DNA of 64,000 nt from Candidatus Zhuqueibacterota bacterium. GTDB lineage: Bacteria > Zhuqueibacterota > Zhuqueibacteria > Thermofontimicrobiales > Thermofontimicrobiaceae. Positions 10,969 through 52,693 of the stretch are shown one piece after another (positions within the stretch are counted from its first letter, which is position 1; each line of letters opens with the position of its first letter). The notes beneath the pieces are model-generated. The model was not told where the DNA came from, did no database searches, and saw nothing but the letters and a program-made list of their open reading frames with translations. A program made the translations under genes and the position numbers. Where the stretch lies: positions 605,527 through 669,526 of the forward strand of contig JBMOPW010000014.1 of the NCBI GenBank assembly GCA_049322915.1. The letters run 5' to 3'.

Positions 10969-11042
10969 ATACTTTTTATTTTCAAGATGTAGCATTAAGA
11001 AATTAACTAACAGAAGTTTTAAATTAAACCAAAGGAGAGCTT

Positions 11043-11768: not shown

Positions 11769-11893
11769 TAAACGATAGTTACTGATAATTTAAATTAAAA
11801 GATTTTTAAAATTGACTAATAACAAATTACTATTGTTACAAGAATAAGCTACAAGTCACTGAATTTTAATCTGGGATTAATAAAAACAATGGA

Positions 11894-14338
11894 GTGAAAA
11901 TGAAGAAACTATCAATACAAAGTTACTGTATTTCAATTGCAACAATCTTGGTATTCGTTATTTCTGGTTTTGCTCATGATAAAACAACACCACGGGGATC
12001 TTCAGTATCGCATAGTCACCCTGCTGATTCAGCATATTGGGATGATGAGCCACCACCTGGGTATTACGATTACGATTCAAATAATGCGATGGATTATAAT
12101 GTATCAAAAGGTAGTTGGACTGTTTGGGCCTTAGATCAATGGGAGATTGCTCATAATTTAACGTTAATTTCACCATCAAATACAGCTTTCAATTGTCATG
12201 CTTATGCTTGGCTTGATGCACGTGAGAATGATTCTGGAACTTGGTGTTGGATGTCATATAGCCAAGCTTCAATATTTTGGAATGATGGGAGCTATTCAGA
12301 AGTTTGCAGTAGTTATGCAACACATGTTGTGCAGGGGGACCATTCAATGGTAATTATAAATGGTGACATTGTGAGATCAAAATGGTATAAGCTCCCTGTA
12401 TTTCAACACAGCTATAATTCACATTATTATGATTCGTCAAGCAAAGTTTTTTTACGAAAAAATCCTGAGGTGCCTTCAGATTTCACATCTATTCCACAAG
12501 GCTTAAATGATGCTAAGTCTGGCCAAATAGTACACGTCGATGCAGGTTCCGATGCTCTAACTGCAAACATAACTGTTCAAGATAATAAATTACTCCAAAT
12601 ACACAATAATGTTAGTCTTGGAAGTTATTATATTACTACTAGCGGGACAGGTCAGATAGAAGTTGATTCAGGTGTTGAATATATTCGTATTATTAGAGAT
12701 TCAGAGATAAAATATCTTTGTGGGACATTAACAAATGCTTGCAATAATGCATCATCAGGAGATCGTATTGAGATTCATGGTACGCATAGCATTAGCGATA
12801 ATGCAACAGTGTCCAGCGGAGTAACTCTCTATATTTGTTCTGGGGCTATTTTAAATTTTTCATCAGGGAAAAAACTAACCATCAATGGAACTCTTACCGC
12901 AAATGGGGTCACATTTCAGGGCAGCAGCTGGTTAGGTTTGGAATTTTCTAATGCCTCGTCGTCCAGTCAGGTTATTAATTGCACGATTACCGATGCTTCT
13001 GTTGGCATTAACATGTATAATAGTGATGTTCAGGTTTCGGGGAACACTATCGAAGACAATACTACTGGAATTCTGTTTAATAACGGCTCGGACGGATCGG
13101 GTATTGTTAATGGCAATGTTGTCCAAAATAATTCGTGCTACGGGATCAGGTGTTTATCAAATTCTGATCCGTTAATATTTTCCAGCAATGTGATAACCTC
13201 TAATGGCGATTATGGCGGGATTTATGGTGGTGTTTGTGGGGATGGTTCATCTATTTTTGATCTTGGCCGTTATTCAGACCAGGGACATAACAGTATCTAC
13301 TGGAATGCTGTGTACGAGGTAGCTACCGGTTACTCGGGGACGATCTATGCCCGCTATAACTGGTGGGGTGATTCAGATCCATCTCCGTTTTTTTATGAAC
13401 CAAATGGTGATGTAGACTGGGATTATTACTTAGCCTACGACCCCAATTATATGTTAAATAAAAGTATGGCAAGGAATTCAACGTCATCGCCTGCTGTAGT
13501 CAATGTCAATGTGTCGGACGATACCGTTGGCGTAAAAGAGTTAGATGAAGCAATCTTCTATTACCAAAATGGCAAATACGATGCCGCAGCCATGCAGTTT
13601 GAAACTATCATGAACAAATACCCGGATCATTTTTCGGGCAGACGTGCCATGGTGTTTATTTACAAATGCAACAAAAAAATGAAAACTGAGGAACAAAATA
13701 TCACACTGTTAAATAACGTATCCACCAAATACTCCAATGAAGAGATTGCTGCCGTGGCCAAAAATCTCCGAACCAGCGATCTCATCAAACAAGGTGATTA
13801 TCCAGGAGCCATCGAGCAGTGCCTGGCAGTAACAAAGTCATTTTCTGAAACAGAATACAATAAATACTCCCTGTACGACCTGGGCAATATTTATTGGTAT
13901 TATTTAAACGATCCCAAAACCGGGGAAACGTATTACCGCCAGCTCATTGCTCAATATCCTGACGATCATCTGGCAATTTCAGCGTTAGCCACTCTGGGCG
14001 AATGGCAGCCTGAGGAGCCAAAGCCAGAACAACAACCCCTGACTGACCATACTGAACATGCAACATTTTCATTGGAACAAAACTATCCCAATCCCTTCAA
14101 TCCCGAGACCACCATTCGCTATCATTTAGCTGAAGCAGCCCACGTGACCATTAAAATTTATAATTTGTTAGGAGCAGAAGTGATCACCCTGATCGAGCAA
14201 TCGCAGCCTCAGGGGAATCATGCGATTCAGTGGCATGGCCGGGATCGGTTTGGTAATACAGTGGCGAATGGCGTGTATTGGCTCCGGCTGCAGGCAGGGA
14301 ACTTTGTCGGTGAGCGGAAGCTGGTGGTAGTGCGATAG
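11894..14338 (+). CDS. Secreted multidomain protein: papain-like N-domain, right-handed beta-helix, TPR, T9SS type A/FlgD-Ig domain
   Basis: FNCHAYAW...DHS...RSKW motif, beta-helix repeats, ARYNWWG, TPR helices, NYPNPFNP tail. Confidence 0.8.
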   Translation: MKMKKLSIQSYCISIATILVFVISGFAHDKTTPRGSSVSHSHPADSAYWDDEPPPGYYDYDSNNAMDYNVSKGSWTVWALDQWEIAHNLTLISPSNTAFNCHAYAWLDARENDSGTWCWMSYSQASIFWNDGSYSEVCSSYATHVVQGDHSMVIINGDIVRSKWYKLPVFQHSYNSHYYDSSSKVFLRKNPEVPSDFTSIPQGLNDAKSGQIVHVDAGSDALTANITVQDNKLLQIHNNVSLGSYYITTSGTGQIEVDSGVEYIRIIRDSEIKYLCGTLTNACNNASSGDRIEIHGTHSISDNATVSSGVTLYICSGAILNFSSGKKLTINGTLTANGVTFQGSSWLGLEFSNASSSSQVINCTITDASVGINMYNSDVQVSGNTIEDNTTGILFNNGSDGSGIVNGNVVQNNSCYGIRCLSNSDPLIFSSNVITSNGDYGGIYGGVCGDGSSIFDLGRYSDQGHNSIYWNAVYEVATGYSGTIYARYNWWGDSDPSPFFYEPNGDVDWDYYLAYDPNYMLNKSMARNSTSSPAVVNVNVSDDTVGVKELDEAIFYYQNGKYDAAAMQFETIMNKYPDHFSGRRAMVFIYKCNKKMKTEEQNITLLNNVSTKYSNEEIAAVAKNLRTSDLIKQGDYPGAIEQCLAVTKSFSETEYNKYSLYDLGNIYWYYLNDPKTGETYYRQLIAQYPDDHLAISALATLGEWQPEEPKPEQQPLTDHTEHATFSLEQNYPNPFNPETTIRYHLAEAAHVTIKIYNLLGAEVITLIEQSQPQGNHAIQWHGRDRFGNTVANGVYWLRLQAGNFVGERKLVVVR
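13793..14005 (+). repeat. 213-bp block shared with 7689-7901
   Basis: Direct sequence comparison. Confidence 0.92.
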
Positions 14339-38933: not shown

Positions 38934-41792
38934 TTAACACGAAAAGGTCCGCAGAAAGGTATGAAAATCGATTTCATCGGCGTTCAATCCGAACCGGTAG
39001 ATGAAATGGCTGGCCAGCCACGAAGAGACAATGGCCTGCAGATAGTTTTGCGGCACGCGTTTCATCACTTTGTCCATGCCGATTTCCTTCACCAGGGTCG
39101 GCGGACAATGCTGTTCAATCACCGCTTTGAAAAGCGTCTTATCTTTCCACAGGTCAGAATTATGGATTGAATCCGTGACTTTGTTGATTTTGTCGCTCAA
39201 CTGGTCGGAGAGGATGGCCATGGGAATTTTGGTCTTGCTGTTTTCATTCCACAATACTTCAAACTCCATCCGCGCATTTTCCTTGATAAAATTCACAACG
39301 TCGGCCACATAACTTTTCCGGAATTCAGGAGTTATTCCATCTCTGACGACCATGTTTTCATTATATTCCGCGTCGGTCAAAGCCAATGACGCGAGCACTT
39401 CCAGCGAAGACGAGGTGACTCCGCCTTTGTTGGCCGAGGCATCTTTGAAAATGATGACGCCCTTACTCTCCAGGGCCAGGCGCGCCTGCTGGGTTAAAAA
39501 CAGGTTAGCGCCCTCGACAACGTATTTGAATCGGGGCACTCCATTTTCATCCAGCAGTTCCTTCCAGTTTTGAATGTTGATCGATTTGGGCCGACCGCCG
39601 CAGGGCACGAATAAATCGGCTTTCAAAATCGGATTCAAATGGAACGTGTTCCGGAAATTCAATCCATTGGCGACGAGCGAACCGTTGGGAAGCTTCACAT
39701 CCCTGTCATTGATGTGCACAAAGAATCCGTTCTTGGAGAGCTTCTGGGTATTGAACTTCTCAACCATTACTCTGGCTTTTGCCAGGCGCGTTAATTCCGT
39801 TCGGTCAATTCCGGCCGGATCGTACAGCACGCCGCTGCCATCGATGATGCAAATGGTTTTGTCTTTTGAAATTAAAATTTCATTGCTGCCGAGATCGCCA
39901 TCCGGACCGCCGGTCTGGACTTTGGTGATGTTCTCTTCGTTTATCCCCAATTTCCTCAGAATGCCGATGACATATTCGTGCACCGAATTGGTCGTCATGC
40001 CGTACAGGTCGTGCGGAATACCGCCTTCGGATAAAGGTTTTCCGGTCGAGAACGATTTCCAGAATTTATAACCGCGTTCGTGAGCGCGATTTGCAGCCCA
40101 ACTCATCACCTCTGCTGTGCCTTCATCCGGGCCCAGGAACAGAATTTCTTCCTTGCCGATGTAATCCTTCACAGATTCATTGGGCAGAATCACATCCAGC
40201 AGCCCATCGACATATTTTTCAAAGGCGACATGCCCCCTGTCCTGATATTCCAGATTCAACAGAATTGTGCCTTTGGAACCGCCTTCCGGAATGTCTTTAT
40301 TTTTCTTCTGTTGGGTGAACGCCAGATTGTAGTTTTCATCGAAGATGGAATCGGAGTTCTGGTCATAATTCTCGGCATCGCGCGAGTGAACGATGCGAAC
40401 GCCGCCGCGGGCGATATCCCGGAATCGGACATGGAAGCCGCGGAATTCTTTTCCCAGCACCATGAAGATGCCGTAGGGATTCTCCTTGTATTCAATCGAA
40501 TCCAGGAATTTGGTGGGATCCAGTCGGAACGCCAGGGATGTTTTGTTCTTCTTGTAAAAATTCGTTTTGAGCACGACGTTGTTGAACAGCAGGAAAAACT
40601 CCAGCACCGCGCGGTCAATTTCCAGAGGAATTTTGCTGAAATCAAACGTGAATTCTTCCTGTGGCGCCTGGCCATTGATGGCGAACCGTTTGGCAAAATG
40701 CAGGTACAATTTTTTTACAACGTCGGGATGATTGTGGATGGTCTGGGCGATTCTGCCTTCTGTGTAAGAATCTTTCACCAGCCGCGTGCGAAGGTTGTTC
40801 AAAATGTCCAGCAAGTCCGGCCGATCTTTGAGCACGGTGGTCAACGCCATGTATTCCATGCTGAAGCTGCTGAGAAATTGATGGGTGAATTTCCAGGCGC
40901 TGGCTGCATAAAAAGCCTCGTGCACCGAGAGTTGGTTGCTTCGGATCAGAGGAGAAAGATCATTTTCCGGATTGATGTAAATTAAACTGATATCGGTGAC
41001 GAGATCGTCCACATGGGGTCTGGCGGTTTCGGCGTCCAGATAGATGGAGATGACCAATCGGCCATTGGAAAACGGTTCGGCGTATTTATGCTTGCTCACC
41101 AGTCCATAAAAATTAATGATATCCGAGATGCCGGAAATGAAACGATAGCTTCCGGCATGGGGAATGGAAACCATGATTCTCAATTCATCGCGCACGTTAT
41201 CGGTGATTGTGATGTAAGGCTGCTTCCAGTTGATGGAATCCCGGACGATTTTTTGATAACGCTGAATGGCTTCTTTCGTGGTCATTTCCAAAAACTGCTT
41301 GTCAGCAATTTTATCGATGTCCGTCTCCATCGGATCTGCGTTGGGCAGTGCATAATCCGGCTTTTGAACAAAGTAGCTTCGAAAATGGGATTCCAGGTCC
41401 AGGCCCGGGGTACGATAGCTCTGCAGCCGGTAGGCCGGGAATACATTTTCTAAACGTCGCTCTATTTCAATGGCCTTCTCGTGATCATCGTTGATCATAT
41501 ACGTGGCAGAGTCCTGATTTTCACCGACAAAATCCACATCCAGTTCTTTGCTGCCCCGATTGATTGCAACGATTTCCGCAGCCATAATGGATTCGACATG
41601 TTTCGCAATCATTTCAACCGAGGTGGTCTGAAAATAGTAACGCACCATCCCAATTTTGCAGCAGAAATTATACAGTCCATTTCGCACCCTCTCCGGTGTG
41701 AAATTTTTATTTTGAAGAATTATCTCTTCAATTTTTTTGAGACTCGCGATTGATAAGCCCGTCTGTTTCGAGGCTTCCTGAAAGACATCCAT
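38934..41792 (-). CDS. Large NAD-specific glutamate dehydrogenase, fungal Gdh2/GDH-3-like
   Basis: FRGFHVRFRDIARGG.R, QQKKNKDIPEGGSKG, GPDEGTA, GGIPHD.YGMT, QTGGPDGDLGSNEIL, PCGGRP, EGANLF, KDASANKGGVTSSSLEVL. Confidence 0.9.
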   Translation of the reverse strand: MDVFQEASKQTGLSIASLKKIEEIILQNKNFTPERVRNGLYNFCCKIGMVRYYFQTTSVEMIAKHVESIMAAEIVAINRGSKELDVDFVGENQDSATYMINDDHEKAIEIERRLENVFPAYRLQSYRTPGLDLESHFRSYFVQKPDYALPNADPMETDIDKIADKQFLEMTTKEAIQRYQKIVRDSINWKQPYITITDNVRDELRIMVSIPHAGSYRFISGISDIINFYGLVSKHKYAEPFSNGRLVISIYLDAETARPHVDDLVTDISLIYINPENDLSPLIRSNQLSVHEAFYAASAWKFTHQFLSSFSMEYMALTTVLKDRPDLLDILNNLRTRLVKDSYTEGRIAQTIHNHPDVVKKLYLHFAKRFAINGQAPQEEFTFDFSKIPLEIDRAVLEFFLLFNNVVLKTNFYKKNKTSLAFRLDPTKFLDSIEYKENPYGIFMVLGKEFRGFHVRFRDIARGGVRIVHSRDAENYDQNSDSIFDENYNLAFTQQKKNKDIPEGGSKGTILLNLEYQDRGHVAFEKYVDGLLDVILPNESVKDYIGKEEILFLGPDEGTAEVMSWAANRAHERGYKFWKSFSTGKPLSEGGIPHDLYGMTTNSVHEYVIGILRKLGINEENITKVQTGGPDGDLGSNEILISKDKTICIIDGSGVLYDPAGIDRTELTRLAKARVMVEKFNTQKLSKNGFFVHINDRDVKLPNGSLVANGLNFRNTFHLNPILKADLFVPCGGRPKSINIQNWKELLDENGVPRFKYVVEGANLFLTQQARLALESKGVIIFKDASANKGGVTSSSLEVLASLALTDAEYNENMVVRDGITPEFRKSYVADVVNFIKENARMEFEVLWNENSKTKIPMAILSDQLSDKINKVTDSIHNSDLWKDKTLFKAVIEQHCPPTLVKEIGMDKVMKRVPQNYLQAIVSSWLASHFIYRFGLNADEIDFHTFLRTFSC

Positions 41793-42691: not shown

Positions 42692-44164
42692 CTACATAAC
42701 TTTCAGCCCACGGCTTTCATAGATTTTTATCCATTTGTTGACGCACTCTGCCAGAGTATTGCCCAATTCCCGGCCGCTGCCGTGTATGGGCCGGAATTCC
42801 TCGGCAAGTTCGGAATATCCTTTGCGGTCCAACCATGTCGAAAAATAGTCGTTATCCGAATATAACTGGATTTTGCTCGGGTGAATTGTCTTGAGCACAT
42901 TGAGCAGGTCGTAGAGATTGTAGATTTTTGTATCTTCGATCAACAGCGGCGTGAACTCCATGCGTAAAATTTCGCGCCGCGTGTGGCGCTTTAAAATCGT
43001 AATCAGCCGTTTGCCTTTATCGTACCGCGGCCTCAGTTTATCACCCAGCTCCCGAAAGCCGTGCATGTACAGCCAGGTTGAAAACCAGTCCTTGCGACCG
43101 TACCGCTCCAGTATCCCTCGCAATTTCTCCGCCTCGGGCGTATCGCTATCGGCTGTGACCACGAGGTTGTAGAGTTCTTCAATATTACGGACGCGATACT
43201 GGCATTCACCGTCGACGTCCCGAATCAGAAAATCGCCCATCCCGGTGAAGTCGTGGATGTAATTTTTCAGCGTCTGCAAGCTGCCTGAATCGCCTTTGGG
43301 CATGATGAACGCGATATCTTTCAGGCTGTTGCCCTCCTCAGCCTTGGAGGCGATGATGACCGGAATGCGCTGGTAATATTTCTGCACCAGGTCGAACAGG
43401 TCTCTGCCTGCGTCGCTCTTCAGACGATCACCGATGGGAAAATACATGTCCGTGATCAGACAGACGACGTCATCGCCCCGGCCGCGCGCTGTAAAATTAC
43501 GGTCTTCAATTTCGGACTCGCTGGAGACGCCGAAGAGGAACTGCAGGGTTTCTTCGTAGGTGCGCGTAGTCATCACATCAGCGCGCTGGCCAATGATGTT
43601 GTAGAGCACCGGCAGAAACTGGGAGAACCATCGCGGCTCATCATCAACGATGAGAAAAATGTACCGTTTAACTTTGGAATACTTTTCGATATTCAGCCGG
43701 TCTTCGGCGCAACGGACGGCTGATGGCAGAATCTGCGATGGCGTGATCTCCGAATTGTCCACGGCAAGAACCAGGTCGGCTTTGGCCGTATAGGGAAATT
43801 TTTGACGGGCGACTGCCGGGGGAGAGCAATGGATTTTACTGTTGGACGAAAGCAGCACGAGGAGTATGTCCGAATTGTTCTTTCGCAGTTCCGATTCATT
43901 CACAAAATTCAGGGCAATGTCATCGCAAATGCAGACGACCGGGCCGCTGGCTGTATAGTGATTCGCCTCAGCCGGATTGGAGAGGATATCGATATTCACC
44001 CAGGGCATGCTGCTTTTGAGCGCGCGGCTCGCCTGGCGGATGTGTTCATCGGCTGAAAAGATGGCCACGCTGGCAATTTTGACCGGATTGATGATTCGGG
44101 GGATAAATTTAAATTCCCTGTGTTTGCCCGTTGCGCGGGTCTTTCGGCTTTGGCTGTAATTCAT
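42692..44164 (-). CDS. Receiver-like + duplicated helical (DUF5752-like) domain protein, equivalent to the N-half of GDH-associated PEP-synthase-like proteins
   Basis: IVDDEP, TYEE, LITDMYFP, G.GDF..RD, and two FSTWL...G..EL....RP repeats. Confidence 0.65.
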   Translation of the reverse strand: MNYSQSRKTRATGKHREFKFIPRIINPVKIASVAIFSADEHIRQASRALKSSMPWVNIDILSNPAEANHYTASGPVVCICDDIALNFVNESELRKNNSDILLVLLSSNSKIHCSPPAVARQKFPYTAKADLVLAVDNSEITPSQILPSAVRCAEDRLNIEKYSKVKRYIFLIVDDEPRWFSQFLPVLYNIIGQRADVMTTRTYEETLQFLFGVSSESEIEDRNFTARGRGDDVVCLITDMYFPIGDRLKSDAGRDLFDLVQKYYQRIPVIIASKAEEGNSLKDIAFIMPKGDSGSLQTLKNYIHDFTGMGDFLIRDVDGECQYRVRNIEELYNLVVTADSDTPEAEKLRGILERYGRKDWFSTWLYMHGFRELGDKLRPRYDKGKRLITILKRHTRREILRMEFTPLLIEDTKIYNLYDLLNVLKTIHPSKIQLYSDNDYFSTWLDRKGYSELAEEFRPIHGSGRELGNTLAECVNKWIKIYESRGLKVM

Positions 44165-44179
44165 AGTATTGGTTGTCTG

Positions 44180-45835
44180 TTATTGCGAAACAATGACACA
44201 GCGCTGGTGGACCGAATCGGCGTAAATGGACACCGGCTGTGGAAATTTCAACACATAGACCGCATCATCAGCGGATGACGGCGTGAAAAACCAGGGGTCC
44301 AGGCTGTCTTCAATCGGTGAAATGAAACCGTAAATGACATTATTGCTCATCAGGTTGGTCAAAAAATGGGTGCCCTGCGTGCCGTACATCCGGGTCTGTT
44401 GTCGTTTCTGCTCCTCATCGAAACCACCCTGAATCATGTATAAAAAATGGCTGCCGTAGATACCGCCGGTCGGATCGCTGGCCTCTTTCTGCGGTTCTGC
44501 CCGGCCGGAGATATCGACGCCGTATTCGAACAATGCCACTGCTCCGGCCACATCGCGGTACTCCACCTGAATGCCCCAGTTGCGATTGCTGCTGCCCAGA
44601 CGGCCGGGAGCGATGAGCACATAGCCCTGGCCCTGGCGCTGTAATTCCTGGTTGATGGCGGCGATTTTTTTCAGGACTGCGTCGTGCTCTCGCTGCGAAT
44701 AAATGAACGGCGACACGGTCACCGCGTAATTCACCCCGGTTTTGATGCCGTGTCCCTGAAAATTGGAAATGGACAGGTACTGATGGTTGAAGTTCTCAGG
44801 GAAGGTGATGGCCTCAAATTTCAACACAGGCAATTGCGTCAATTGGACCACATGAAATTGCCCGCTCAGTCCGCTTTCGCTGGTCTCGGTCAGATTGAAT
44901 ACAAATTCGATTTGATAATGGGCGGTGATTTTGGCCGAGATGATATCCAGAATGGTGCACAAACCGCTTTTAAAACCGAAACGGTCCTGCTGAATCAGAT
45001 TTTCCAGGGTGATCATGTTTTTCTGCTCGCCCACCAGCGAGGCAAAGCGCCGATGAGAAAACCGCACGTGCAGTTTTTTCATGGTCTCCAATTCTTCGCC
45101 GGAGAGATGCGCGTTTTTGGACATATCGATGGCGTAAAAGACCGACTGATCGTTCTCCAAAAGCTCCAGCGAAATGGGATTGCGGATGGTCACCATGGAC
45201 TTGACCGGGAAATCGTCCAGCACGGTGGCATACCCATGTCCCAGCGCGATGCGGGCGAATCCCTCATCCGGATTTTGATTTTTCAAGGCGTACGGGAAAA
45301 ACGAATTGGCCACGCCGGAGACCAGGGGATAATAGATAGGACCGGCATCGGAATTGTCGAACAACCCCGGGATGGGATTGATGACGATGGCCATTTTTTC
45401 GCGGCTGTCCGGTGGTTGTTTTTTGAGGAAATCAGAGTAAATGAATTCAATCGCCTGAATGAACTGGTGGAATCGCGTGGCAGCATCCGGGTGATTGTTC
45501 GGGAGCATGTAGGATGTGTTTTCGCCGGCATGAACAGAGCCGCCGCCCTCCTGGGTTGTAATCGCTTCATTCGTCGCCGAAGATCGCACGCTGATGGGAA
45601 TATTGCCCAATTGCTCCAGGAGGCCGGACAGAATTTCCAGTTCTTCGCCGGTAAATCTGCGGTCGTTCATTAAATAGTGGTCGAAGAAAACAGTGGTGAG
45701 TACGCGAGTGGGCAATTTGTGCGCGGCCGGGATATTGCATTCGTTGATCTTTACAAGCCCTTCGCCTTTTCCACCCATGGATCCGGCGCCGTAAATTTTA
45801 ACGTCGCCAATTTTTTCAACAACTTTTATGCTCAT
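44180..45835 (-). CDS. PEP/pyruvate-binding (PPDK-N ATP-grasp) domain protein lacking His-swivel and PEP-utilising domains
   Basis: GSMGGKG.GL, VRSS, YMLPN, EKMA, YYP.VSGVA.S, PGRLGS, GTHF..N. Confidence 0.75.
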   Translation of the reverse strand: MSIKVVEKIGDVKIYGAGSMGGKGEGLVKINECNIPAAHKLPTRVLTTVFFDHYLMNDRRFTGEELEILSGLLEQLGNIPISVRSSATNEAITTQEGGGSVHAGENTSYMLPNNHPDAATRFHQFIQAIEFIYSDFLKKQPPDSREKMAIVINPIPGLFDNSDAGPIYYPLVSGVANSFFPYALKNQNPDEGFARIALGHGYATVLDDFPVKSMVTIRNPISLELLENDQSVFYAIDMSKNAHLSGEELETMKKLHVRFSHRRFASLVGEQKNMITLENLIQQDRFGFKSGLCTILDIISAKITAHYQIEFVFNLTETSESGLSGQFHVVQLTQLPVLKFEAITFPENFNHQYLSISNFQGHGIKTGVNYAVTVSPFIYSQREHDAVLKKIAAINQELQRQGQGYVLIAPGRLGSSNRNWGIQVEYRDVAGAVALFEYGVDISGRAEPQKEASDPTGGIYGSHFLYMIQGGFDEEQKRQQTRMYGTQGTHFLTNLMSNNVIYGFISPIEDSLDPWFFTPSSADDAVYVLKFPQPVSIYADSVHQRCVIVSQ

Positions 45836-45998
45836 GAATTGTTGAACACCTTCAATCCCAAAATGTTCTTTTTGAAGTCGCCGTTCCCACAACAGCGATG
45901 TCGAGGCAGAGACACATTTGCACATTCCAATCACATGAGGCAGAAAGTCGACCTCACGGGATGGAATTTCCCGATTGAATCAGTGACACATTAAAATG

Positions 45999-46058: not shown

Positions 46059-47636
46059 TTAGCTGGCCAGAATTTGCTCGACTTCGTCGCGATCGGCATC
46101 CATGATATAGGTGATGCCGCTGATTTCAGCCGATTCCGCCGTCAACGCAGCGATATCGTTTCGGTCGATATGGGCCAGGGAGAACTTCCGGTTGCCGCAC
46201 ATCAATTGACGCAGGCCCTGGGCCAGGCGTTCGAAATAAGTGTACAACCCAATCGCGCCGGTGGGCAATTCTTTAAAAGTGTCGTTGCCCAGTTCGCGTT
46301 TCAGATCGGTTGCCGTCACGAACACTTCTTCGATATTCGAGCCGAATCGCTCCACATAAACGGGCAGCATGCCTTCATTGATTCGCTTCCCAATTGTCTT
46401 GCCAACCATCGCCGCAGCCAATGGCCCTCGCGCCATGCCGATCAGTTTGGCATAGGGCGCCAAAAGCGCCAGGCCTTTGAACATTTGATCTTCGAACGTA
46501 AATCCACCGGCCGGCGCTATTGCCGGGACATAGTCTCCATTCTGCGCCAATTGATGAACGTAATCATAGAGCAGCGAATGGAGTTCCACCGCCGGAACGC
46601 CCCATTCGTTCATCATCCGCCACGGGCTCATGCCGGTGCCGCCGCCGGCGCCGTCCACGGTGAGCAGATCGATTTTAGCTTTGGAGGCATATTTCACCGC
46701 GCGGGCCAAATCGGCCGGGCGATAGGCGCCTGTTTTCAGGAACACATATTTCGCGCCGGCGTCGCGCAGTTCCTGCACCCGTTCCATGAAGCTCTCTTCC
46801 GAAACCATGCCAACTCGCGAATGGCGCTCGAATTCCTTGAATGCCCCGGCTTCGAAGGCTTTGATCACGTTTTCGTCCATTGGATCCGGCAGCACGATGT
46901 AGCCGCGTTTTCTGAGGAGTTGCGCTTTGGCTAAATTTTTGATTTTCACTTCGCCGCCGATGTCTTTGGCGCCCTGGCCCCATTTCAATTCGACAGCTTC
47001 GACGCCCAATTCCCGAATAGCGTATTCCTGAGCGCCCAGCCGGGTGTCTTCCACGTTGGCCTGGCACACGATGACGCCGTAGCCATCCCGCTGCCATTTC
47101 TGGAACATTTTCACGCGACGCGCCAGCTCCGGAGATTTTTTCACTCTCCCGTTCACGATTTCGGATTCAGCATCCATACCCACAACATTTTCACCAATGG
47201 TGAGACCGGTGCCGGCCAGCGCTGTTCCAATGGCCAGACCTTCCCAGTTATTCAATGCAACATTGGTCGAACCCAGACCGGGAATCATGATCGGCAGTTT
47301 GAATTTCAATTTGCCAATGCGGGATTCCAGATTCACATTGGGGAAAATTGCTATGTCGCTATCCGCCTTAATTCCATGTGCGCCAACTGCCGTGCCCAGA
47401 ATTGTAAAATGAGAATAATCGACCGGGTAATTTTTTTCCGATGCGGTGGTGATGATGCCAAATGGCTGTGGGTAAATGACTTCATGTCCGCGATAGGCTG
47501 ATTTGCCAATTTCGCACATTCCAACGCAACCATCGATGCAGGTTACACACATACCGCTGAACGGGCTGATAGAATCTTCGGTTCTATTCTTTGTTAAAGT
47601 CGCCGCAGAACGATTTAAACTGGTTAAAGATGGCAT
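46059..47636 (-). CDS. Stand-alone FMN-binding glutamate synthase family protein with N-terminal Cys4 motif
   Basis: ELKWGQGAK.IGG, TVDGAGGGTG.SP, AGG, GMAR; N-terminal CVTCIDGCVGMC; no amidotransferase domain. Confidence 0.88.
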   Translation of the reverse strand: MPSLTSLNRSAATLTKNRTEDSISPFSGMCVTCIDGCVGMCEIGKSAYRGHEVIYPQPFGIITTASEKNYPVDYSHFTILGTAVGAHGIKADSDIAIFPNVNLESRIGKLKFKLPIMIPGLGSTNVALNNWEGLAIGTALAGTGLTIGENVVGMDAESEIVNGRVKKSPELARRVKMFQKWQRDGYGVIVCQANVEDTRLGAQEYAIRELGVEAVELKWGQGAKDIGGEVKIKNLAKAQLLRKRGYIVLPDPMDENVIKAFEAGAFKEFERHSRVGMVSEESFMERVQELRDAGAKYVFLKTGAYRPADLARAVKYASKAKIDLLTVDGAGGGTGMSPWRMMNEWGVPAVELHSLLYDYVHQLAQNGDYVPAIAPAGGFTFEDQMFKGLALLAPYAKLIGMARGPLAAAMVGKTIGKRINEGMLPVYVERFGSNIEEVFVTATDLKRELGNDTFKELPTGAIGLYTYFERLAQGLRQLMCGNRKFSLAHIDRNDIAALTAESAEISGITYIMDADRDEVEQILAS

Positions 47637-47692
47637 TGCAAATCTCCTTAATTATTCCAAAATTAAATTCTGATTTCTTCGTTAATTACAGG

Positions 47693-48391
47693 TTATCTGC
47701 TGTGTTTCGGGATTCGTCCGGAAGCCTGTTCGCAGGCCACGCAGGGATCCATGTAACACATCATATTGTCAAAATACTCCACGCAGGGCGGTTCCAGATT
47801 GGAGCAGGCGTTGCAGATCGCGCCATCCGACTGGAAATTCGGGCCGATACACCGCATCTGGCAGGCGGGACAAATGTACATGCAACCGCCGCAGAGACGG
47901 CATTCTTCGGAGCGAATATCGAACGGCGTGGTGATGTGGCGATTGTGTCCGCGTCCGACGAATCCGATGGCTTTGCCCATCATCTGCTCGGCGCACATAC
48001 GCACACAAAGGCCGCAGTTGATGCAATCTTCGTATTCCTGTTTGAAACGCACCTGGTGCACACCGTGCTTCGAGGCCAGGTCCTGAATCACTTTAGAGCC
48101 GGGACATGTGGCCAAATGAAGTTCAATGACCATTTTCCTGGCGTCCAGGACCCGCTGGGAATTGGTGAAAACTTTCAGCCCCTCGGTGGCCGGATAGGTG
48201 CAGGAACTCACAATTTTGGTGGAGGCGCCACTGGCTATTTCCACAACGCACAACCGGCATGCGCCGTAGGGGCTCAGACCGTCGTGATAACACAATGTGG
48301 GAATGTGGAACCCATATAAATTAGCGGCCTCAAGCAAGGTGGTCCCTTCCTCTACCTGCACATCGAGACCATTCATTGTTAAATTAATCAT
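47693..48391 (-). CDS. HydA-N/NuoG-N-like polyferredoxin ([2Fe-2S] + 2x[4Fe-4S] + Cys-rich tail), no catalytic domain
   Basis: IPTLC...GACRLC...SC; CINCGLC...C; CRLCGGC...CP; extra Cys tail. Confidence 0.88.
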   Translation of the reverse strand: MINLTMNGLDVQVEEGTTLLEAANLYGFHIPTLCYHDGLSPYGACRLCVVEIASGASTKIVSSCTYPATEGLKVFTNSQRVLDARKMVIELHLATCPGSKVIQDLASKHGVHQVRFKQEYEDCINCGLCVRMCAEQMMGKAIGFVGRGHNRHITTPFDIRSEECRLCGGCMYICPACQMRCIGPNFQSDGAICNACSNLEPPCVEYFDNMMCYMDPCVACEQASGRIPKHSR

Positions 48392-48425
48392 GGATTGCTC
48401 CCTTATTTCAGTTCAGATGATTTAA

Positions 48426-48640
48426 TACCTATGATTCTAAAATGAAGTTTTTAAACGCCAATCGTCAAATGCCAAAAAAATTTCAATAATCAAAAAGATA
48501 CATTCGAAACTCAAACACAAGCTGATTTCATGCAGGAAGCGAACATCCGTTTGAAAATTGAAATTTGGTCATTGTCAGTTATTTGTGATTTAAAAATAAA
48601 TTTTTGGAATTTGCAGAATTTCATTTTAGAAATTCAGGTA
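48426..48640. repeat. Intra-operon inverted-repeat element with 7-mer AT-rich repeats
   Basis: tacctatgattctaaaatgaa ... ttcattttagaaattcaggta. Confidence 0.6.
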
Positions 48641-48663
48641 ATACATCAACATCTATCGTTTCA

Positions 48664-51600
48664 TTATTCCTGCTTCAGCAACGCCACTTCCAGCTCGCAG
48701 CGCAGACAGCGTTGGGCTTCCTTCATGGCCATTTCCTTGCTGTACACTTGCTCGACTTCTGCGAAGTTCTGAACACGATCTTTCAGAGGCAATTTGTCAG
48801 GAACCACCATGGGATAATCGACCGGGTCGGCGTCGATATCGAACGCCACGTCGGCCGGTTTATGTATTCTCCAGGGATAAACTCGCTCTCCCTTTGTCAG
48901 AAATTGATCGATGGATTCGGCAATATGCTGCCCCGCAGCGACCGCTTTGATGACGGTGGCAGGCCCGGTGGTGACATCGCCGCCGGCGAAAACATTGGGT
49001 ATACTTGTCTGGCCGGTCTTGCTGATTTTGATTGTGCCATCTTCCCATGTTTCCACCTCCAGCCCGGCGAACAATTGCTCCACGTCGGCAAATTCACCAA
49101 TGGCCGGGATGATGATATCCGCGTCCAGCATGAATTCGGAGCCTTTGCGCGGAATGGGCTTGCGTCGGCCATCTTTTCCAAAGATGTCCAGATCCATGCG
49201 GATGCACTGAATGCCGGTCACCTTTTGTCCATCGCCTAAAATCTGAACCGGCGCGGATAAAATTTCCAGCCTGGCGCCTTCTTCAATGCCGTCGTCAATT
49301 TCATCTTTGAATGCCGGCATCTCTTCCCTGGTTCGGCGGTAGACGATTGTCACGTTTCTGGCGCCCATGCGGATGCAGGTTCTGGCTGCATCGACGGCTG
49401 TATTGCCGCCGCCAACCACCACAACGCGCATGTCTTTGATATACGGCTTTTTGCCGATTTTAATATCGCGCAGAAAATCCACGCCCTGGTAAACGCCAAG
49501 CAGATTCTCGCCGTCGACGCCGAGCGAACGGTCACCGTACATTCCCACGGCCACGAAAAATGCGTCGTAGCCATCATTCATCAGGGTTTTGAAAGGAATG
49601 TCCACGCCAATTTTTGTATTTAATTTGATGTCAACGCCCATGTCTTTGATCGCATCGATTTCCCGTTGCAGGACGGAATTGGGCAGCCGACTCGCCGGGA
49701 TGGCTTCGGCCATCATGCCGCCGGCCACTTCATGGGCTTCAAAGACAGTGACCTGGTAACCCAACCGCGCCAGGAAATAAGCAGCGCTCAAACCGGCCGG
49801 GCCTCCGCCAATGACGCCGATATGATGAGGCAGTTTGGTCTTGGGAATCGGTATTTTGGGGAATTGTCCTTTTTCAGTGAGATGATCGCCGGCAAATCGC
49901 TTCAGCGCGCGGATGGCCACCGGCCCGTCGATCTGATTGCGCCGGCACTTAAACTGACAGGGATGGTCGCACACGCGGCCGCACACGGATGGGAATGGAT
50001 TGGTGTTGAGAATTTCCAGCAGGGCGTCCTCAAACCGGCCCGCGGCCGTGTACGCAATGTATGCCGGAGCGTTTGTCCCGGCCGGACAGCTATTTTGACA
50101 GGGTGAAATGTAGAGATTGCGGCACACGCTGGCGGAGCATTTCTTCTCGACGATGTGCTCGATATATTCATGTCGGAAATAGCGCAGCGTGCTCAGCACC
50201 GGATTGGACGCCGTCTGTCCCAGGCCGCACTGAGTGGTATCCGCCACCACATGAGCCAGTTCCTCTAACAGCGCCAGTTTTTCCAGCGTGCCGCGGCCTT
50301 CGGTAATATCGGTGACCAGTTCCAGCATTCGCTGAATGCCCTTGCGACAGGTGAAACATTTGCCGCACGATTCATCAAGCAGGAATGTGAGAAAATACCT
50401 GGCGACGTCCACCATGCAGGTGTCTTCGTCCATCACCACCATACCGCCTGAGCCCATGATGGAGCCGGCTTCGGCCAATTTTTCGTAATCCACCGGCAGG
50501 TTGAGCATTTCAATGGGCAGGCAGCCGCCGGAAGGTCCGCCGGTCTGCACGGCCTTAAATTTTTTGCCGCCGGGAATGCCGCCGCCGATATTGAAAATGA
50601 TGTCGCCCAGCGGAATGCCCATCGGCACTTCGACCAGACCGGTGTTATTTATCTTGCCAACCAGCGAGAAAATTTTAGTGCCTTTGCTCTTTTCAGTGCC
50701 CAGACTGGCGAACCATTCGGCGCCGCGAGTGATGATATTGGGCACGTTGGCCCAGGTCTCGACATTGTTGATGTTGGTCGGCTGGCCCCAGAGTCCGCGC
50801 TGAATGGGATAGGGTGGACGCTGTTTCGGCTCGCCCACACGTCCCTGAATCGACGCCAGGAGCGCCGTCTCTTCGCCGCAGACAAACGCGCCGGCGCCGC
50901 GCACTACTTTAAGTCGGAACGAAAATCCGCTCCCCAAAATATCATCGCCCAGCAAGCCGTATTCTTCCGCCTGTTTGATGGCCAGATTGACGCGCTTCAC
51001 GGCCAGAGGATATTCATCGCGGACGTAAACGTATCCCTCCGACGCGCCGATGGCATAGGCGCCAATGATCATGCCTTCCAGAACTGCATGGGGATCGGAT
51101 TCCAGAATGCTCCGATCCATGAACGCGCCGGGGTCGCCTTCATCGGCGTTGCACACCACATATTTTTCGGAACCGCGCGATTTGCGGCACAACTCCCATT
51201 TTAACCCGGTGGGGAAACCGGCGCCGCCACGGCCCCGAAGTCCAGAGGCCTTGATGGCTGCGATGAGTTCATCCGGTTTAAATTCGGTGAGCGCTTTGGC
51301 TAATGCGTCGTATCCGCCAAAGGCAATATATTCATCGATGATCTCGGGATCGATGCGCCCCCGATTTTTTAACACAATCAGTCGCTGATGTTTGAAGAAC
51401 TCGATATCGTTCATGGTGGGAACAGGTTCTTCTTTCTCAGGTGGGACATACATGAATTCTTTGACAGGCCGGCCTTTTTTGAAATGTTCTTCGACAAGAT
51501 GAGGTATGTTCTCCACTTTAAGTTGCTGATAAAAGATTCCTTCCGGTTGGACCACAACGATGGGTCCCCGCTCGCAAAATCCATTGCAGCCCGTGGTAAT

Positions 51601-51729
51601 CACCTGGATTTCGTTGTGAAGCCCCTGTTTCTGCAACTCCTGTTCTAACGCTGCTTTAATTTTGAAGGAACCATTGGAAACACAACCTGTACCGGCGCAA
51701 ACCAATAAATGTGCTCGATATTGTTTCAA
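48664..51729 (-). CDS. HydB/NuoF-type NADH-FMN subunit fused to a GltD/NfnB-like FAD-NADPH domain
   Basis: CAGTGC/GCNGFC, GRGGAGFPTG, NADEGDPG, GAFVCGEE, ESCGKC..C...CGLG, then PCQNSCP, CGRVC..PC...C, GGGPAG, GGGNTA, YRR. Confidence 0.92.
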   Translation of the reverse strand: MKQYRAHLLVCAGTGCVSNGSFKIKAALEQELQKQGLHNEIQVITTGCNGFCERGPIVVVQPEGIFYQQLKVENIPHLVEEHFKKGRPVKEFMYVPPEKEEPVPTMNDIEFFKHQRLIVLKNRGRIDPEIIDEYIAFGGYDALAKALTEFKPDELIAAIKASGLRGRGGAGFPTGLKWELCRKSRGSEKYVVCNADEGDPGAFMDRSILESDPHAVLEGMIIGAYAIGASEGYVYVRDEYPLAVKRVNLAIKQAEEYGLLGDDILGSGFSFRLKVVRGAGAFVCGEETALLASIQGRVGEPKQRPPYPIQRGLWGQPTNINNVETWANVPNIITRGAEWFASLGTEKSKGTKIFSLVGKINNTGLVEVPMGIPLGDIIFNIGGGIPGGKKFKAVQTGGPSGGCLPIEMLNLPVDYEKLAEAGSIMGSGGMVVMDEDTCMVDVARYFLTFLLDESCGKCFTCRKGIQRMLELVTDITEGRGTLEKLALLEELAHVVADTTQCGLGQTASNPVLSTLRYFRHEYIEHIVEKKCSASVCRNLYISPCQNSCPAGTNAPAYIAYTAAGRFEDALLEILNTNPFPSVCGRVCDHPCQFKCRRNQIDGPVAIRALKRFAGDHLTEKGQFPKIPIPKTKLPHHIGVIGGGPAGLSAAYFLARLGYQVTVFEAHEVAGGMMAEAIPASRLPNSVLQREIDAIKDMGVDIKLNTKIGVDIPFKTLMNDGYDAFFVAVGMYGDRSLGVDGENLLGVYQGVDFLRDIKIGKKPYIKDMRVVVVGGGNTAVDAARTCIRMGARNVTIVYRRTREEMPAFKDEIDDGIEEGARLEILSAPVQILGDGQKVTGIQCIRMDLDIFGKDGRRKPIPRKGSEFMLDADIIIPAIGEFADVEQLFAGLEVETWEDGTIKISKTGQTSIPNVFAGGDVTTGPATVIKAVAAGQHIAESIDQFLTKGERVYPWRIHKPADVAFDIDADPVDYPMVVPDKLPLKDRVQNFAEVEQVYSKEMAMKEAQRCLRCELEVALLKQE

Positions 51730-51761
51730 GTTATTCTCCCTGTTAATATGAGGTTAGGTCG

Positions 51762-52145
51762 CTAAAAGGTTCGCTCACTTCCTATCGCCAAGGCGTATTT
51801 GGTGACAATGTTGCCGCCCAAAATATGTTCGCTCAAGATGGTTTTAATTTTTTCGCGGGTCAACTCCACGTATTTGACCGGCGGTTTGCCGGGAATTTCC
51901 ACCGTCACCATCGGTTCCTTGCTGCACAGTCCGGCGCAGCCTGATGTGGTGACAATGACATCCGTGATATGGCGCGATTCAAGTTCACCCATCAATGCTT
52001 CCATAATATCGCGAGCCCCGGAGGCAATGCCACACGTTCCCATGTGCACAATCACTTTCGCTCTCCCCGCTCCTTCACGAAGCACGACAGTTCCCCGGGC
52101 TTTTTCCCGGATGTTTTTCAAATCTTCAAGGGTGAGTTTAGGCAT
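51762..52145 (-). CDS. HydD/HndB-like thioredoxin-fold ferredoxin subunit
   Basis: VHMGTCGIASGA...SGCAGLC..EP.V.V. Confidence 0.88.
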   Translation of the reverse strand: MPKLTLEDLKNIREKARGTVVLREGAGRAKVIVHMGTCGIASGARDIMEALMGELESRHITDVIVTTSGCAGLCSKEPMVTVEIPGKPPVKYVELTREKIKTILSEHILGGNIVTKYALAIGSERTF

Positions 52146-52210
52146 AGTGTATTCCTTTTCAATTATGATACATTAAATGGAATTATCTAAACAAGCACGT
52201 GTGACATGAC

Positions 52211-52693
52211 CTACTCGGCTTTTTCCTTCGCTCCATTATGATTGCTGTATTGATCCAGAATGGCATTGACCTTCTGGGGTCGGGTATTGCCGTGATAGGT
52301 TTCGTCGACCACAACGATGGGACCCAGGGCGCAGGCGCCGAGACAGTTGACTGTCTTCAACGTGAATAACCGGTCGTCTGTGGTTTCGCCGGCCACAATG
52401 TCCAATTTCTTTTCCACCTTTTCGAGAACCCGATGTGCTCCGCGAACATGACATGCGGTTCCCAGACATACCTGCACCAGGTGCTTCCCCCGCGGCGTGA
52501 GGCTGAAGGAATTGTAAAACGAAGCGATGCCGAAAAGATCGATCAGGGGTATTTCCATTTTTTCCGAGATGTAGCGGAGTGAATCCTCAGGCAGGTAATT
52601 GTAAACTGCCTGAACATCCTGTAAAATAGCAATAATCCCGGAACGGTTTTTCCCATTTCGTTCTAAAATCTCGGCGATTGTCTCTTGTTCCAT
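52211..52693 (-). CDS. HydC/NuoE-like [2Fe-2S] subunit
   Basis: ILQDVQ..YNYLP, VCLGTACH..GA, NCLGACALGP. Confidence 0.92.
   Translation of the reverse strand: MEQETIAEILERNGKNRSGIIAILQDVQAVYNYLPEDSLRYISEKMEIPLIDLFGIASFYNSFSLTPRGKHLVQVCLGTACHVRGAHRVLEKVEKKLDIVAGETTDDRLFTLKTVNCLGACALGPIVVVDETYHGNTRPQKVNAILDQYSNHNGAKEKAE

Follow-up and report, generated by a model that had tools for sequence, protein, structure and literature searches.

We analysed a stretch of 64,000 nucleotides (nt) from a Candidatus Zhuqueibacterota bacterium (GenBank assembly GCA_049322915.1, contig JBMOPW010000014.1, positions 605,527 to 669,526), referred to here as the window. Our subject is a group of five co-oriented open reading frames (ORFs) on its minus strand, at 46059-52693. 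These genes combine the NuoE/NuoF-like core of the Bfu (HydABC-type) enzymes and a short iron-sulfur (Fe-S) protein with an FMN-binding TIM barrel that is a distant relative of the synthase domain of the glutamate synthase protein GltB. The gene set proved to be conserved across many phyla, and its predicted parts point to a variant of the Bfu plan for which the redox chemistry of glutamate and 2-oxoglutarate is a plausible use.

Five genes encode a Bfu-like core, a short Fe-S protein, and an FMN barrel

The first gene of the operon (52211-52693; all genes described here lie on the minus strand) encodes a protein of 160 amino acids (aa) that matches PF01257 over positions 1-144 of 145 (E = 3e-49). 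It has the NuoE-type thioredoxin-like [2Fe-2S] domain (IPR002023) by which BfuC, the counterpart of NuoE and HydC, is recognized, and the NuoE and HoxE models of NCBIfam match it below their cut-offs. The second gene (51762-52145) encodes a small, HydD-like thioredoxin-like [2Fe-2S] ferredoxin of 127 aa, which scores 24.4 bits against PF01257, where the cut-off is 24.8, and matches NF041612 at E = 1e-11. Next comes a gene with a TTG start (48664-51729) for a fusion protein of 1,021 aa, in which a BfuB/NuoF core (residues 1-530) is joined to a GltD/NfnL-type NAD(P)H module with FAD and two [4Fe-4S] clusters (residues 531-1021). The Pfam domains of this NuoF::GltD fusion run, from the N terminus, in the order 2Fe-2S, Complex1_51K, NADH_4Fe-4S, Fer4_20, and Pyr_redox_2.

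An AT-rich spacer of 272 nt (48392-48663) separates the fusion gene from the fourth gene, and it contains a sigma-70-like element, TTGGCG-16-TAGAAT, on the minus strand at 48461-48434. The fourth gene (47693-48391) encodes a short BfuA-type Fe-S subunit of 232 aa with a Fer2_4 domain, a Fer4_7 dicluster domain, and a Cys-rich C-terminal tail; a Pfam search of this protein found neither an H-cluster domain nor a pterin domain. After a gap of 56 nt, the operon ends with the gene for the FMN barrel (46059-47636), a protein of 525 aa that has a Cys4 motif near its N terminus and matches PF01645 at residues 277-350 (E = 1.5e-12). A hairpin resembling an intrinsic terminator (46032-46002, minus strand), with a 12-bp stem containing 7 GC pairs and a T-rich tail, begins 26 nt past the stop codon of the FMN-barrel gene and closes the operon.

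A preliminary description made from the letters of the window had listed five co-oriented genes with these domain types and a closing terminator, and the ORF coordinates, the Pfam matches, and the hairpin bear it out. It had also placed the FMN-barrel gene directly downstream of the Fe-S gene, which is correct, at a distance of 57 nt, which is one more than we measured. Its picture of a five-gene run holds for the shared orientation, with the correction that the 272-nt spacer and its sigma-70-like element interrupt the run. Finally, it had named the FMN protein as the only catalytic partner of the complex, a claim that we do not uphold, since NAD(P)H has a site of its own in the fused GltD/NfnL module.

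The FMN-barrel gene lies next to the Bfu-like genes in many phyla

We scanned one genome per prokaryote species and obtained 602 pattern matches. Relatives of the FMN protein are encoded by 596 of these, so that the genomes of at least 596 species carry one. The best 80 loci were retained for locus comparisons. Within these 80, the FMN protein is 67-86% identical to the window protein across phyla. The carriers bear the names KSB1, Zixibacteria, Planctomycetota, Acidobacteriota, Aminicenantes, Bacteroidota, Ignavibacteriota, Latescibacterota, Bacillota (Syntrophomonadaceae and Dethiobacter), Smithella, and Scalindua, together with Thermoplasmata-type archaea. Clustering at 50% leaves about a dozen full-length representatives plus fragments, and in an exhaustive profile search 254 of 1.84 billion representatives score E <= 1e-30 against the family. 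Judged by these sequences, the family is a tight island without a gradient toward GltB.

The Fe-S gene stands directly upstream of the FMN-barrel gene, on the same strand, at 74 of the 80 loci. The remaining six loci start less than 300 nt from a contig end, and the synteny is thus complete (74/74) wherever upstream DNA exists. Further upstream, a NuoF gene precedes the Fe-S gene at 65 loci and a NuoE gene precedes NuoF at 57. The junctions are tight: the median distance from NuoF to the Fe-S gene is -4 nt (at most 60 nt in 62 of 65 loci), and that from the Fe-S gene to the FMN-barrel gene is 26 nt (at most 60 nt in 62 of 74). Among these relatives the 272-nt NuoF-to-Fe-S spacer of the window is an outlier, and it may be a recombination joint at which a different NuoE/2Fe-2S/NuoF module came in. 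The link between the FMN protein and a Hyd/Nuo-type module that had been drawn from the window therefore also holds elsewhere. Because the synteny involves overlapping or nearly overlapping genes, and because the neighboring proteins have solved Bfu relatives, membership of the FMN protein in a conserved Hyd/Nuo-type (Bfu-like) complex is a strongly supported prediction.

The 5' end of the gene set varies. NuoE-like ORFs of the main clade span about 290-310 aa, including a zinc-ribbon-like extension at the C terminus (for example L010:4116-5054 and L016:5481-6350). The window NuoE is 160 aa long, and the separate small 2Fe-2S gene comes next in place of the extension; a homologue of that small gene occurs at only two of the 80 loci, L008 and L075.

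The NuoF subunit ends in a ferredoxin-type tail or a GltD module

The NuoF part of the fusion protein finds its best solved relative in 7t2r_B, the BfuB subunit of a bifurcating NiFe-HydABCSL enzyme (residues 3-539, E = 4e-239), followed by 7q4v_B, 9mqx_B, and 9n5u_B, which are FeFe-HydB, WorB, and NfnB. It contains the Nuo51 FMN-binding domain (IPR011538; PF01512, E = 1e-47) and the Nuo51 4Fe-4S domain (IPR019575; PF10589, E = 2e-29) of BfuB proteins. The SLBB domain (IPR019554) is matched below threshold (PF10531, E = 1.4e-4, 22.1 bits where the cut-off is 27), and the region aligns with solved BfuB. For the GltD part, the best solved relative is residues 102-567 of 9bov_A (E = 1e-114), the NADPH-oxidizing, NfnL-like domain of NfnA from an NfnABC/Stn enzyme; 9n5u_A, 8oh5_C, and 4ylf_B come next.

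One domain of the Bfu definition is absent. Past residue 525 of the window BfuB we found no Fer4-type Pfam match and no CxxCxxCxxxC motif of the ferredoxin-type 4Fe-4S tail (IPR017896, clusters B3 and B4), a result of Pfam and motif searches rather than of the InterPro/PROSITE profile itself. The Fer4_20 domain of the GltD module occupies the place of this tail. We then compared 60 relatives with a long NuoF match, of which 25 were called unfused and 35 fused. In 24 of the 25 unfused proteins, NuoF ends in a tail of 66-84 aa carrying two CxxCxxCxxxC motifs, and Pfam confirmed the ferredoxin-type dicluster in one example (L016); the remaining one (L047) is in fact fused, its reading frame being interrupted by a frame change. 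All 35 fused proteins, like that of the window, have none of these motifs and carry a GltD module of roughly 500 aa at exactly the same place. Across the 60 relatives and the window, then, NuoF ends in a dicluster tail or in a GltD module and never in both; the fused form makes up about 60% of relatives, and 24 of the 60 have no GltD module at all. Fused and unfused forms are interspersed on a quick NuoF tree, which indicates that the swap occurred repeatedly.

According to PMC11829005, the tail of solved Bfu enzymes, with its clusters B3 and B4, is the route by which low-potential electrons leave the mobile NuoE cluster for ferredoxin. The domain content of the two forms suggests that the low-potential partner is probably ferredoxin in the unfused complexes and NAD(P)(H) in the fused ones, including that of the window. 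For the window, NADP(H) is the more likely partner than ferredoxin because the GltD module replaces the ferredoxin-docking domain of NuoF.

The genome that contains the window has four more NuoE/NuoF/Fe-S sets. The nearest paralogous Bfu-like set lies on contig C36 (L087:2668-10342). It begins with a NuoE that has an N-terminal response-regulator receiver domain and continues with a 602-aa BfuB, 71% identical to the window NuoF part, a short Fe-S protein, an HdrA-like flavoprotein, MvhD, and an HdrB/C-like CCG protein.

The Fe-S subunit is a short, WorA-like BfuA

A profile built from 26 relatives of the Fe-S protein has WorA of WorABCSL (9mqx_A, 247 aa) as its best solved match (E = 1e-47), and the next matches are the N-terminal parts of bifurcating HydA proteins. 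The cysteines expected to hold a [2Fe-2S] cluster (positions 34, 45, 48, and 64) and two [4Fe-4S] clusters (123-133 and 164-174) are invariant. By eye, the His-x3-Cys-type motif of a His-ligated cluster is absent between the 2Fe-2S and the dicluster parts. The protein thus contains the 2Fe-2S and 4Fe-4S ferredoxin-type domains that characterize BfuA, the Type 2 form of which lacks clusters A3 and A5 and works with one or more extra catalytic subunits. WorA itself is described in PMC12318220 as a short BfuA without cluster A3 whose C-terminal end recruits a separate catalytic module, and PMC9304861 classes an arrangement like that of WorA as Type 2 among the Bfu enzymes. Beyond the dicluster, the Fe-S protein has an additional invariant Cys-rich tail (C181, C193, C196, C203, and C212, with CVAC in most relatives), which may hold a metal or a cluster at a place like that of A5.

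The FMN barrel is a distant relative of the GltB synthase domain

PF01645 is the sole Pfam family to match the FMN barrel, with a score of 47.8 bits (cut-off, 20.4) over model positions 185-257 of 369. An AlphaFold2 model built from 30 relatives has the fold of an FMN-type TIM barrel (pLDDT 80.5, pTM 0.85) and is less confident at the Cys4 N terminus, at residues 53-69, and in the loops at 222-228 and 331-345. When this model was compared with about 48,000 solved representatives, the highest Z scores were those of mandelate dehydrogenase (24.3), IDI-2 (24.0), lactate and mandelate oxidases (about 23.5), and IMPDH/GMP reductase (22-23). Azospirillum GltS, matched through its synthase domain, reached a Z of 18.4 and aligned over more residues than any other structure (351, between model 19-509 and chain 782-1189). 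Foldseek returned the same fold families.

The N-terminal motif C30-x2-C33-x3-C37-x3-C41 is invariant in 30 of 30 aligned relatives, and the only other cysteines of the window protein are C191 and C480. Canonical GltB proteins of the same phylum, like an archaeal-type protein, carry the [3Fe-4S] motif C-x5-C-x4-C-P, which is absent from the window barrel; both the presence of the first motif and the loss of the second had been read correctly in the preliminary description. Compared by eye, KWGQGAK224 with R244 at +20 parallels QGAKPGEGG with an Arg at +20 in a canonical GltB (L091), and ERHS and GGGTGMSP parallel PPHHD and DGGTGASP in canonical GltB of the phylum. The QGAK...R (K224 and R244), ERHS, and GGGTGMSP motifs are invariant in 30 relatives. 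GltS uses the Lys and the Arg of the QGAK...R loop to contact 2-oxoglutarate.

A profile search identified the nearest protein outside the family in the representative library. In this protein (P0212, 800 aa), Fer4 and FrhB_FdhB_N/C domains are joined to a barrel that belongs to the subclass of the window barrel. The two barrels share 30% identity over residues 28-509 (E = 4e-47), and a Cys-rich motif occupies the equivalent position in P0212. Barrels fused to FrhB are predicted, though not demonstrated, to be F420-dependent glutamate synthases in the account of PMC3448663. A word-indexed search, which is weak as a negative, gave no longer fused forms of the barrel (920-2625 aa), and the exhaustive profile search found one FrhB fusion. 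Within the window's genome, a weak PF01645 match on contig C39 was considered as a second copy of the barrel and rejected as IMPDH; tblastn finds the window copy alone.

The genome has a single GOGAT-like gene, and canonical GltB is less frequent among carriers of the barrel

Neither the operon nor the rest of the window has a gene with a GATase_2 or GXGXG domain. A Pfam search of the whole genome (96% complete) did not find PF00310, and its sole match to PF01493 (GXGXG) is a giant ORF on contig C20. The earlier statement that no glutamine amidotransferase or GXGXG gene lies nearby is thus confirmed, and an operon without an amidotransferase partner is supported. The giant ORF (L089:4412-13078, plus strand; 2,888 aa) combines, in an unusual order, FAD_binding_4 (GlcD-like), 4Fe-4S dicluster, Glu_synthase FMN, GATase_6, and GXGXG domains, and it is the sole GOGAT-like gene of the genome; frames of about 2,800-3,300 aa with the same Pfam signature occur in at least 12 other genomes of the phylum.

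We next took a census of 113 genomes of the window's phylum that are at least 90% complete, using the protein as query and tallying by hand. Nineteen of them carry the barrel, and the same 19 show the Pfam signature at 185-303. Two of the 19 carry proteins that are only 48-49% identical, and one carrier (G034, C23:120444-122018) has one in-frame TAG in its FMN-barrel gene, which could be a sequencing error, a pseudogene, or recoding. A canonical GltB of about 1,500 aa is present in 4 of the 19 carriers and in 54 of the 94 noncarriers (53 of 93 if G115, a noncarrier with a large GltB-like frame that is flagged as unpublished, is left out). Eight of the 19 carriers and 22 of the 94 noncarriers have no other PF01645 protein at E <= 1e-6. 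This trend fits a displacement of GOGAT by the operon; it is suggestive only, because the carriers cluster in a few families.

Genes for nitrogen metabolism and regulation recur beside the operon

We clustered the ORFs of the 80 loci to find recurrent neighbors. A conventional glutamate dehydrogenase (GDH) of about 430 aa, for which a Pfam check was made at one locus (L020), lies beside the operon at 10 of the 80 loci, in differently named phyla, upstream or downstream, and on either strand. A cluster of regulators is present at 39 of the 80. Of its 78 members, 39 were scanned with Pfam and proved to be His kinases (often with GAF domains), sigma-54 activators of the NtrC type, other receiver proteins, and PPDK_N proteins; pairs of a His kinase and a sigma-54 activator flank many loci. 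From the nearest other flanking genes, 117 were selected and 105 were scanned. Among these, an NrpR-type nitrogen repressor gene lies directly 3' of the FMN-barrel gene at two Smithella loci (L018:9677-10762 and L024:1544-2605), and a glutamine synthetase gene directly precedes the operon at one Aminicenantales locus (L066:2778-4184). The others form no pattern, most being unrelated to nitrogen metabolism.

Downstream of the window's operon lies a large GDH gene of the NAD-specific type (38934-41792; 952 aa, with ELFV_dehydrog, GDH_2nd, Bac_GDH_CD, and GDH2_N domains). The preliminary description had called this gene adjacent. It is indeed present, but it stands outside the operon at a distance of 4.3 kb, with two genes between. 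The two intervening genes encode p584 (44180-45934), a divergent PPDK_N-like (ATP-grasp) protein, and p490 (42692-44164), a 490-aa protein related to the non-PPDK part of receiver-bearing PPDK_N fusion proteins.

PPDK_N (PF01326) proteins of 600-1100 aa, often fused to a receiver, flank the operon at 10 of the 80 loci (L007, L012, L038, L043, L046, L052, L058, L067, L077, and L079), and several start a few bases from the stop codon of the FMN-barrel gene. The PF01326 protein of L012, which directly follows that gene, is 25% identical to p584 (E = 3e-26). By BLAST, p584 and p490 both match inside the fused ORFs of L058 and L067, the latter of which has Response_reg and PPDK_N domains in Pfam; the two window proteins together are a split and very divergent version of such a protein. 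Neither has a significant Pfam match of its own, and a search of solved structures with p584 gave nothing at E <= 1. This PPDK_N-like accessory neighbor is possibly regulatory.

Elsewhere in the window, at about 8000-14000, the G+C content falls to 0.34-0.40, compared with about 0.50 in the remainder, and this stretch may be a foreign island.

A model for the complex, and the alternatives to it

In our model, the five genes would specify one soluble iron-sulfur flavoenzyme on the Bfu plan. The NuoE-like and NuoF-like subunits would form an NADH-binding core with FMN, [4Fe-4S], and [2Fe-2S] cofactors, with NADH reacting at the FMN of NuoF. The WorA-like Fe-S subunit would wire this core to the Cys4 cluster, putatively of the [4Fe-4S] type, and to the FMN of the barrel, where a small third substrate would be reduced or oxidized. 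Electrons would have a second exit through the GltD module or, in unfused forms, through the ferredoxin tail. That the operon encodes a single complex with the barrel as its catalytic subunit is, in our judgement, very probable, and the binding of the barrel to the Fe-S subunit is predicted from synteny and homology.

Glutamate and 2-oxoglutarate are plausible substrates of the barrel, a proposal that we regard as evenly balanced. The preliminary description had likewise proposed a glutamine-independent glutamate oxidoreductase, and its interpretation is supported in part. It is suggested by the recurrence of GDH, NrpR, glutamine synthetase, and sigma-54 regulators near the operon, by the QGAK...R motif, and by the smaller share of carriers with a canonical GltB. 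Joined to the architecture, it yields the reading that we favor, albeit tentatively and at a little less than even confidence: a Type 2 Bfu-like complex that would carry out glutamine-independent redox chemistry of 2-oxoglutarate, ammonium, and glutamate coupled to NADH and NADP(H). The reaction might be written 2 NADH + NADP+ + 2-oxoglutarate + NH4+ <-> 2 NAD+ + NADPH + glutamate. The couple of 2-oxoglutarate plus ammonium with glutamate has a potential near -0.13 V (standard value), and that of NADPH is about -0.37 V. Under cell conditions, NADH stands at about -0.28 V and ferredoxin at about -0.5 V, values quoted from PMC9304861 and PMC12318220. With these potentials, NADH would be the middle-potential donor, 2-oxoglutarate/glutamate the high-potential acceptor, and NADP+ (ferredoxin in unfused forms) the low-potential acceptor, because this is the assignment that makes sensible use of all three sites. 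In the reverse direction, glutamate oxidation would be pulled by NADPH or reduced ferredoxin. A coupled stoichiometry, whether bifurcating or confurcating, is possible but in our judgement somewhat less likely than not. In the Bfu family as PMC9304861 defines it, a third substrate reduces NAD+ and ferredoxin in such a coupled, bifurcating manner. The most specific form of the proposal, a bifurcating glutamate synthase independent of glutamine and ATP that would split NADH between the exergonic amination of 2-oxoglutarate with ammonium and an uphill reduction of NADP+ (ferredoxin in unfused forms), or run in reverse, seems to us rather unlikely.

Several results weigh against a glutamate-converting complex. 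Sequence similarity to GltB is slight: the PF01645 match covers only 74 residues of a 369-position model, which places the barrel very far from GltB; NCBIfam has no match for it; solved GltS was not found at E <= 1 by phmmer or by a 30-sequence family profile; and hhalign against 12 canonical or archaeal GltB proteins of the phylum aligned residues 319-397 only (72 columns, 37% probability). We found neither an ammonia tunnel nor a glutaminase. The census is confounded by the relatedness of the carriers. No sigma-54 promoter (TGGCAC-N5-TTGCW, at most two mismatches) lies upstream of the NuoE gene, and with the same pattern the window has 23 matches compared with a shuffled mean of 36, fewer than expected. 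In the Bfu enzymes characterized in PMC9304861 and PMC11829005, moreover, the third substrate is the middle-potential partner, whereas we propose a high-potential one. Two further points, the fold comparison and the composite look of the operon, are taken up with the explanations that they favor.

The same complex could act on another small molecule, such as an enoate, a different 2-oxo or 2-imino acid, or an alpha-hydroxy acid like lactate or 2-hydroxyglutarate, with its nitrogen-related neighbors reflecting regulation or a shared metabolite pool. The folds that outscore GltS, namely, the alpha-hydroxy-acid dehydrogenases and oxidases (mandelate dehydrogenase and lactate oxidases among them), IDI-2, and IMPDH, speak for such a substrate, as does a similarity to GltB that extends no further than the FMN-binding half and a handful of motifs; 70 of the 80 loci also have no GDH nearby, and most flanking genes are unrelated to nitrogen metabolism. 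Yet PF01645 is the barrel's one family match, its QGAK...R, HS, and GGTG motifs are kept and invariant, the partner fused to NuoF in 60% of loci is of the GltD type, and no pathway genes for an alternative substrate recur by the operon, while those for GDH, NrpR, and glutamine synthetase do. On balance we regard another substrate as unlikely, though deserving of serious attention. We consider it improbable, though likewise worth serious attention, that the enzyme is an uncoupled, linear, NAD(P)H- and ammonia-dependent glutamate synthase or dehydrogenase to which the Bfu-like core only brings electrons. These would pass without bifurcation from NADH at NuoF, NADPH at GltD, or both along the Fe-S chain to the barrel. 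A whole bifurcating-type BfuBC core would seem a costly device for a reaction that a one-subunit GDH performs, and every locus keeps the N-terminal 2Fe-2S domain together with the ferredoxin tail or the GltD module, the unfused forms retaining a tail that docks ferredoxin. Still, by established thermodynamics NAD(P)H is already reducing enough for the amination of 2-oxoglutarate, and, to judge from the FrhB-fused relative, barrels of this subclass may need no more than a plain two-electron donor. A linear chain from GltD to GltB also operates in classical GltS, as described in PMC8097209.

The window holds all the part types of NfnABC (BfuC, BfuB, the N-terminal domain of BfuA, and an NfnL-like module), and its GltD part is closest to NfnA of the solved NfnABC enzymes. 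The operon might on that account encode an Nfn/Stn-like transhydrogenase between NADH and NADPH, with or without ferredoxin, in which the barrel, having no small-molecule substrate, would store electrons, supply a second flavin site, or have a regulatory role. This explanation is very improbable: 24 of 60 relatives keep the barrel without any NfnL/GltD module, no other protein of the set is as conserved as the barrel (67-86% identity across phyla), which has invariant motifs like those of an active site, and the ferredoxin tail needed for Nfn activity is missing in fused forms. We give even less credence to a pair of side-by-side enzymes, that is, an oxidoreductase made of NuoE, the 2Fe-2S protein, and NuoF::GltD next to a pair of the Fe-S protein and the FMN barrel with its own promoter. 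The window itself invites this thought, since the AT-rich 272-nt spacer with its promoter-like element comes between these two parts of the operon. In addition, the window NuoF groups on a quick tree with a paralogue from the same genome that lies beside HdrA-like genes, and with L008 and L075 (SH-aLRT 97); having its closest relative in the paralogue of another gene cluster indicates that core modules were swapped between enzymes. In the relatives, however, the same junction overlaps (median -4 nt; at most 60 nt in 62 of 65), the gene order is fixed in 65 loci, and the Fe-S protein is a homologue of BfuA, whose solved relatives bind BfuB.

Because the gene set is so strongly conserved across many phyla, at about 70-86% protein identity, it suggests a central reaction of sediment and subsurface anaerobes, one that current metabolic reconstructions miss or mislabel, for example as a bifurcating hydrogenase, NuoEFG, or a glutamate synthase. 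If glutamate and 2-oxoglutarate are the substrates, the complex would be a new redox-coupled node linking the carbon, nitrogen, and pyridine-nucleotide/ferredoxin pools, and it would add a high-potential third substrate to the Bfu family. If it is moreover a bifurcating synthase, energy-starved anaerobes could assimilate ammonium while banking low-potential reductant, and the complex would stand in for GOGAT in many lineages. Relatives that differ in having a ferredoxin tail or a GltD module also offer a ready-made comparison for learning what sets the low-potential partner of a Bfu enzyme.

Comparison with known systems

In full-text literature searches and in excerpts from PMC9304861, PMC11829005, PMC12318220, PMC8097209, PMC6338057, PMC5736913, PMC5317091, PMC10134865, and PMC3448663, we found no description of a Bfu or NuoEF complex with a GltB-like subunit. 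The terms "glutamate," "GltB," and "GltD" have no occurrence in the main text of PMC9304861, a check that stands apart from its supplementary table of 1,558 BfuB clusters. The operon type is apparently undescribed though very widespread in anaerobes.

The window system shares with the alpha-beta protomer of GltS (GOGAT) the pairing of a GltD-type module with a PF01645 FMN barrel that keeps the QGAK...R, H-x, and GGTG motifs. Unlike GltS, it lacks the glutaminase domain, the central domain, the GXGXG domain, and the [3Fe-4S] motif, carrying the N-terminal Cys4 motif instead; the NuoEF core and BfuA intervene between GltD and the barrel, and 24 of 60 relatives lack GltD altogether. A stand-alone GltB domain 2 of the archaeal type, found in the same phylum (L101, 493 aa), has an N-terminal ferredoxin domain with two [4Fe-4S] clusters, a C-terminal cluster motif, and separate genes for the glutaminase and GXGXG parts, whereas the window barrel has the one Cys4 motif only and no C-terminal motif. 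The FrhB-fused P0212, of the type that PMC3448663 predicts to be an F420-dependent glutamate synthase, resembles the window barrel in its subclass and in the place of its Cys-rich motif. It differs in being a single polypeptide that would take electrons in through an F420H2 module rather than through NuoEF and BfuA, and its function is itself only predicted.

NfnABC/Stn, the NADH-dependent ferredoxin:NADP+ oxidoreductase (9bov, 9n5u, and 8oh5), has the same BfuBC core and an NADPH module of the NfnL/GltD type with FAD and two [4Fe-4S] clusters. In that enzyme, as set out in PMC11829005, the NfnL-like module is part of BfuA and supplies the core by way of the A clusters, and the ferredoxin tail of BfuB is retained. 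The window shows neither an NfnL module in BfuA nor a B3/B4 tail on BfuB; its module is attached to the C terminus of BfuB in place of the tail, and an FMN barrel is added as an extra subunit.

The closest likeness in the Fe-S subunit is to WorABCSL of Acetomicrobium mobile (9mqx), a tungsten aldehyde oxidoreductase-Bfu enzyme of Type 2 in the classification of Schut et al. 2022 (PMC9304861). Both have the BfuC and BfuB core and a short BfuA without cluster A3 (247 aa in Wor and 232 aa in the window) that passes electrons to or from a separate catalytic module, an exchange that for the window is predicted from homology. In Wor this module is WorSL with a tungstopterin, while in the window it would be the FMN barrel with its Cys4 site. 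The C terminus of WorA is a zinc finger and helix adaptor according to PMC12318220, compared with a Cys-rich tail in the window protein, and the window BfuB has lost the ferredoxin-type B3/B4 tail and bears the GltD/NfnL module. Because the definition given in PMC9304861 includes that ferredoxin-type domain, the predicted domains of the window operon make it a new variant on the Bfu plan rather than a plain Bfu member; by the same definition, and on their predicted domains, its unfused relatives are Bfu enzymes.

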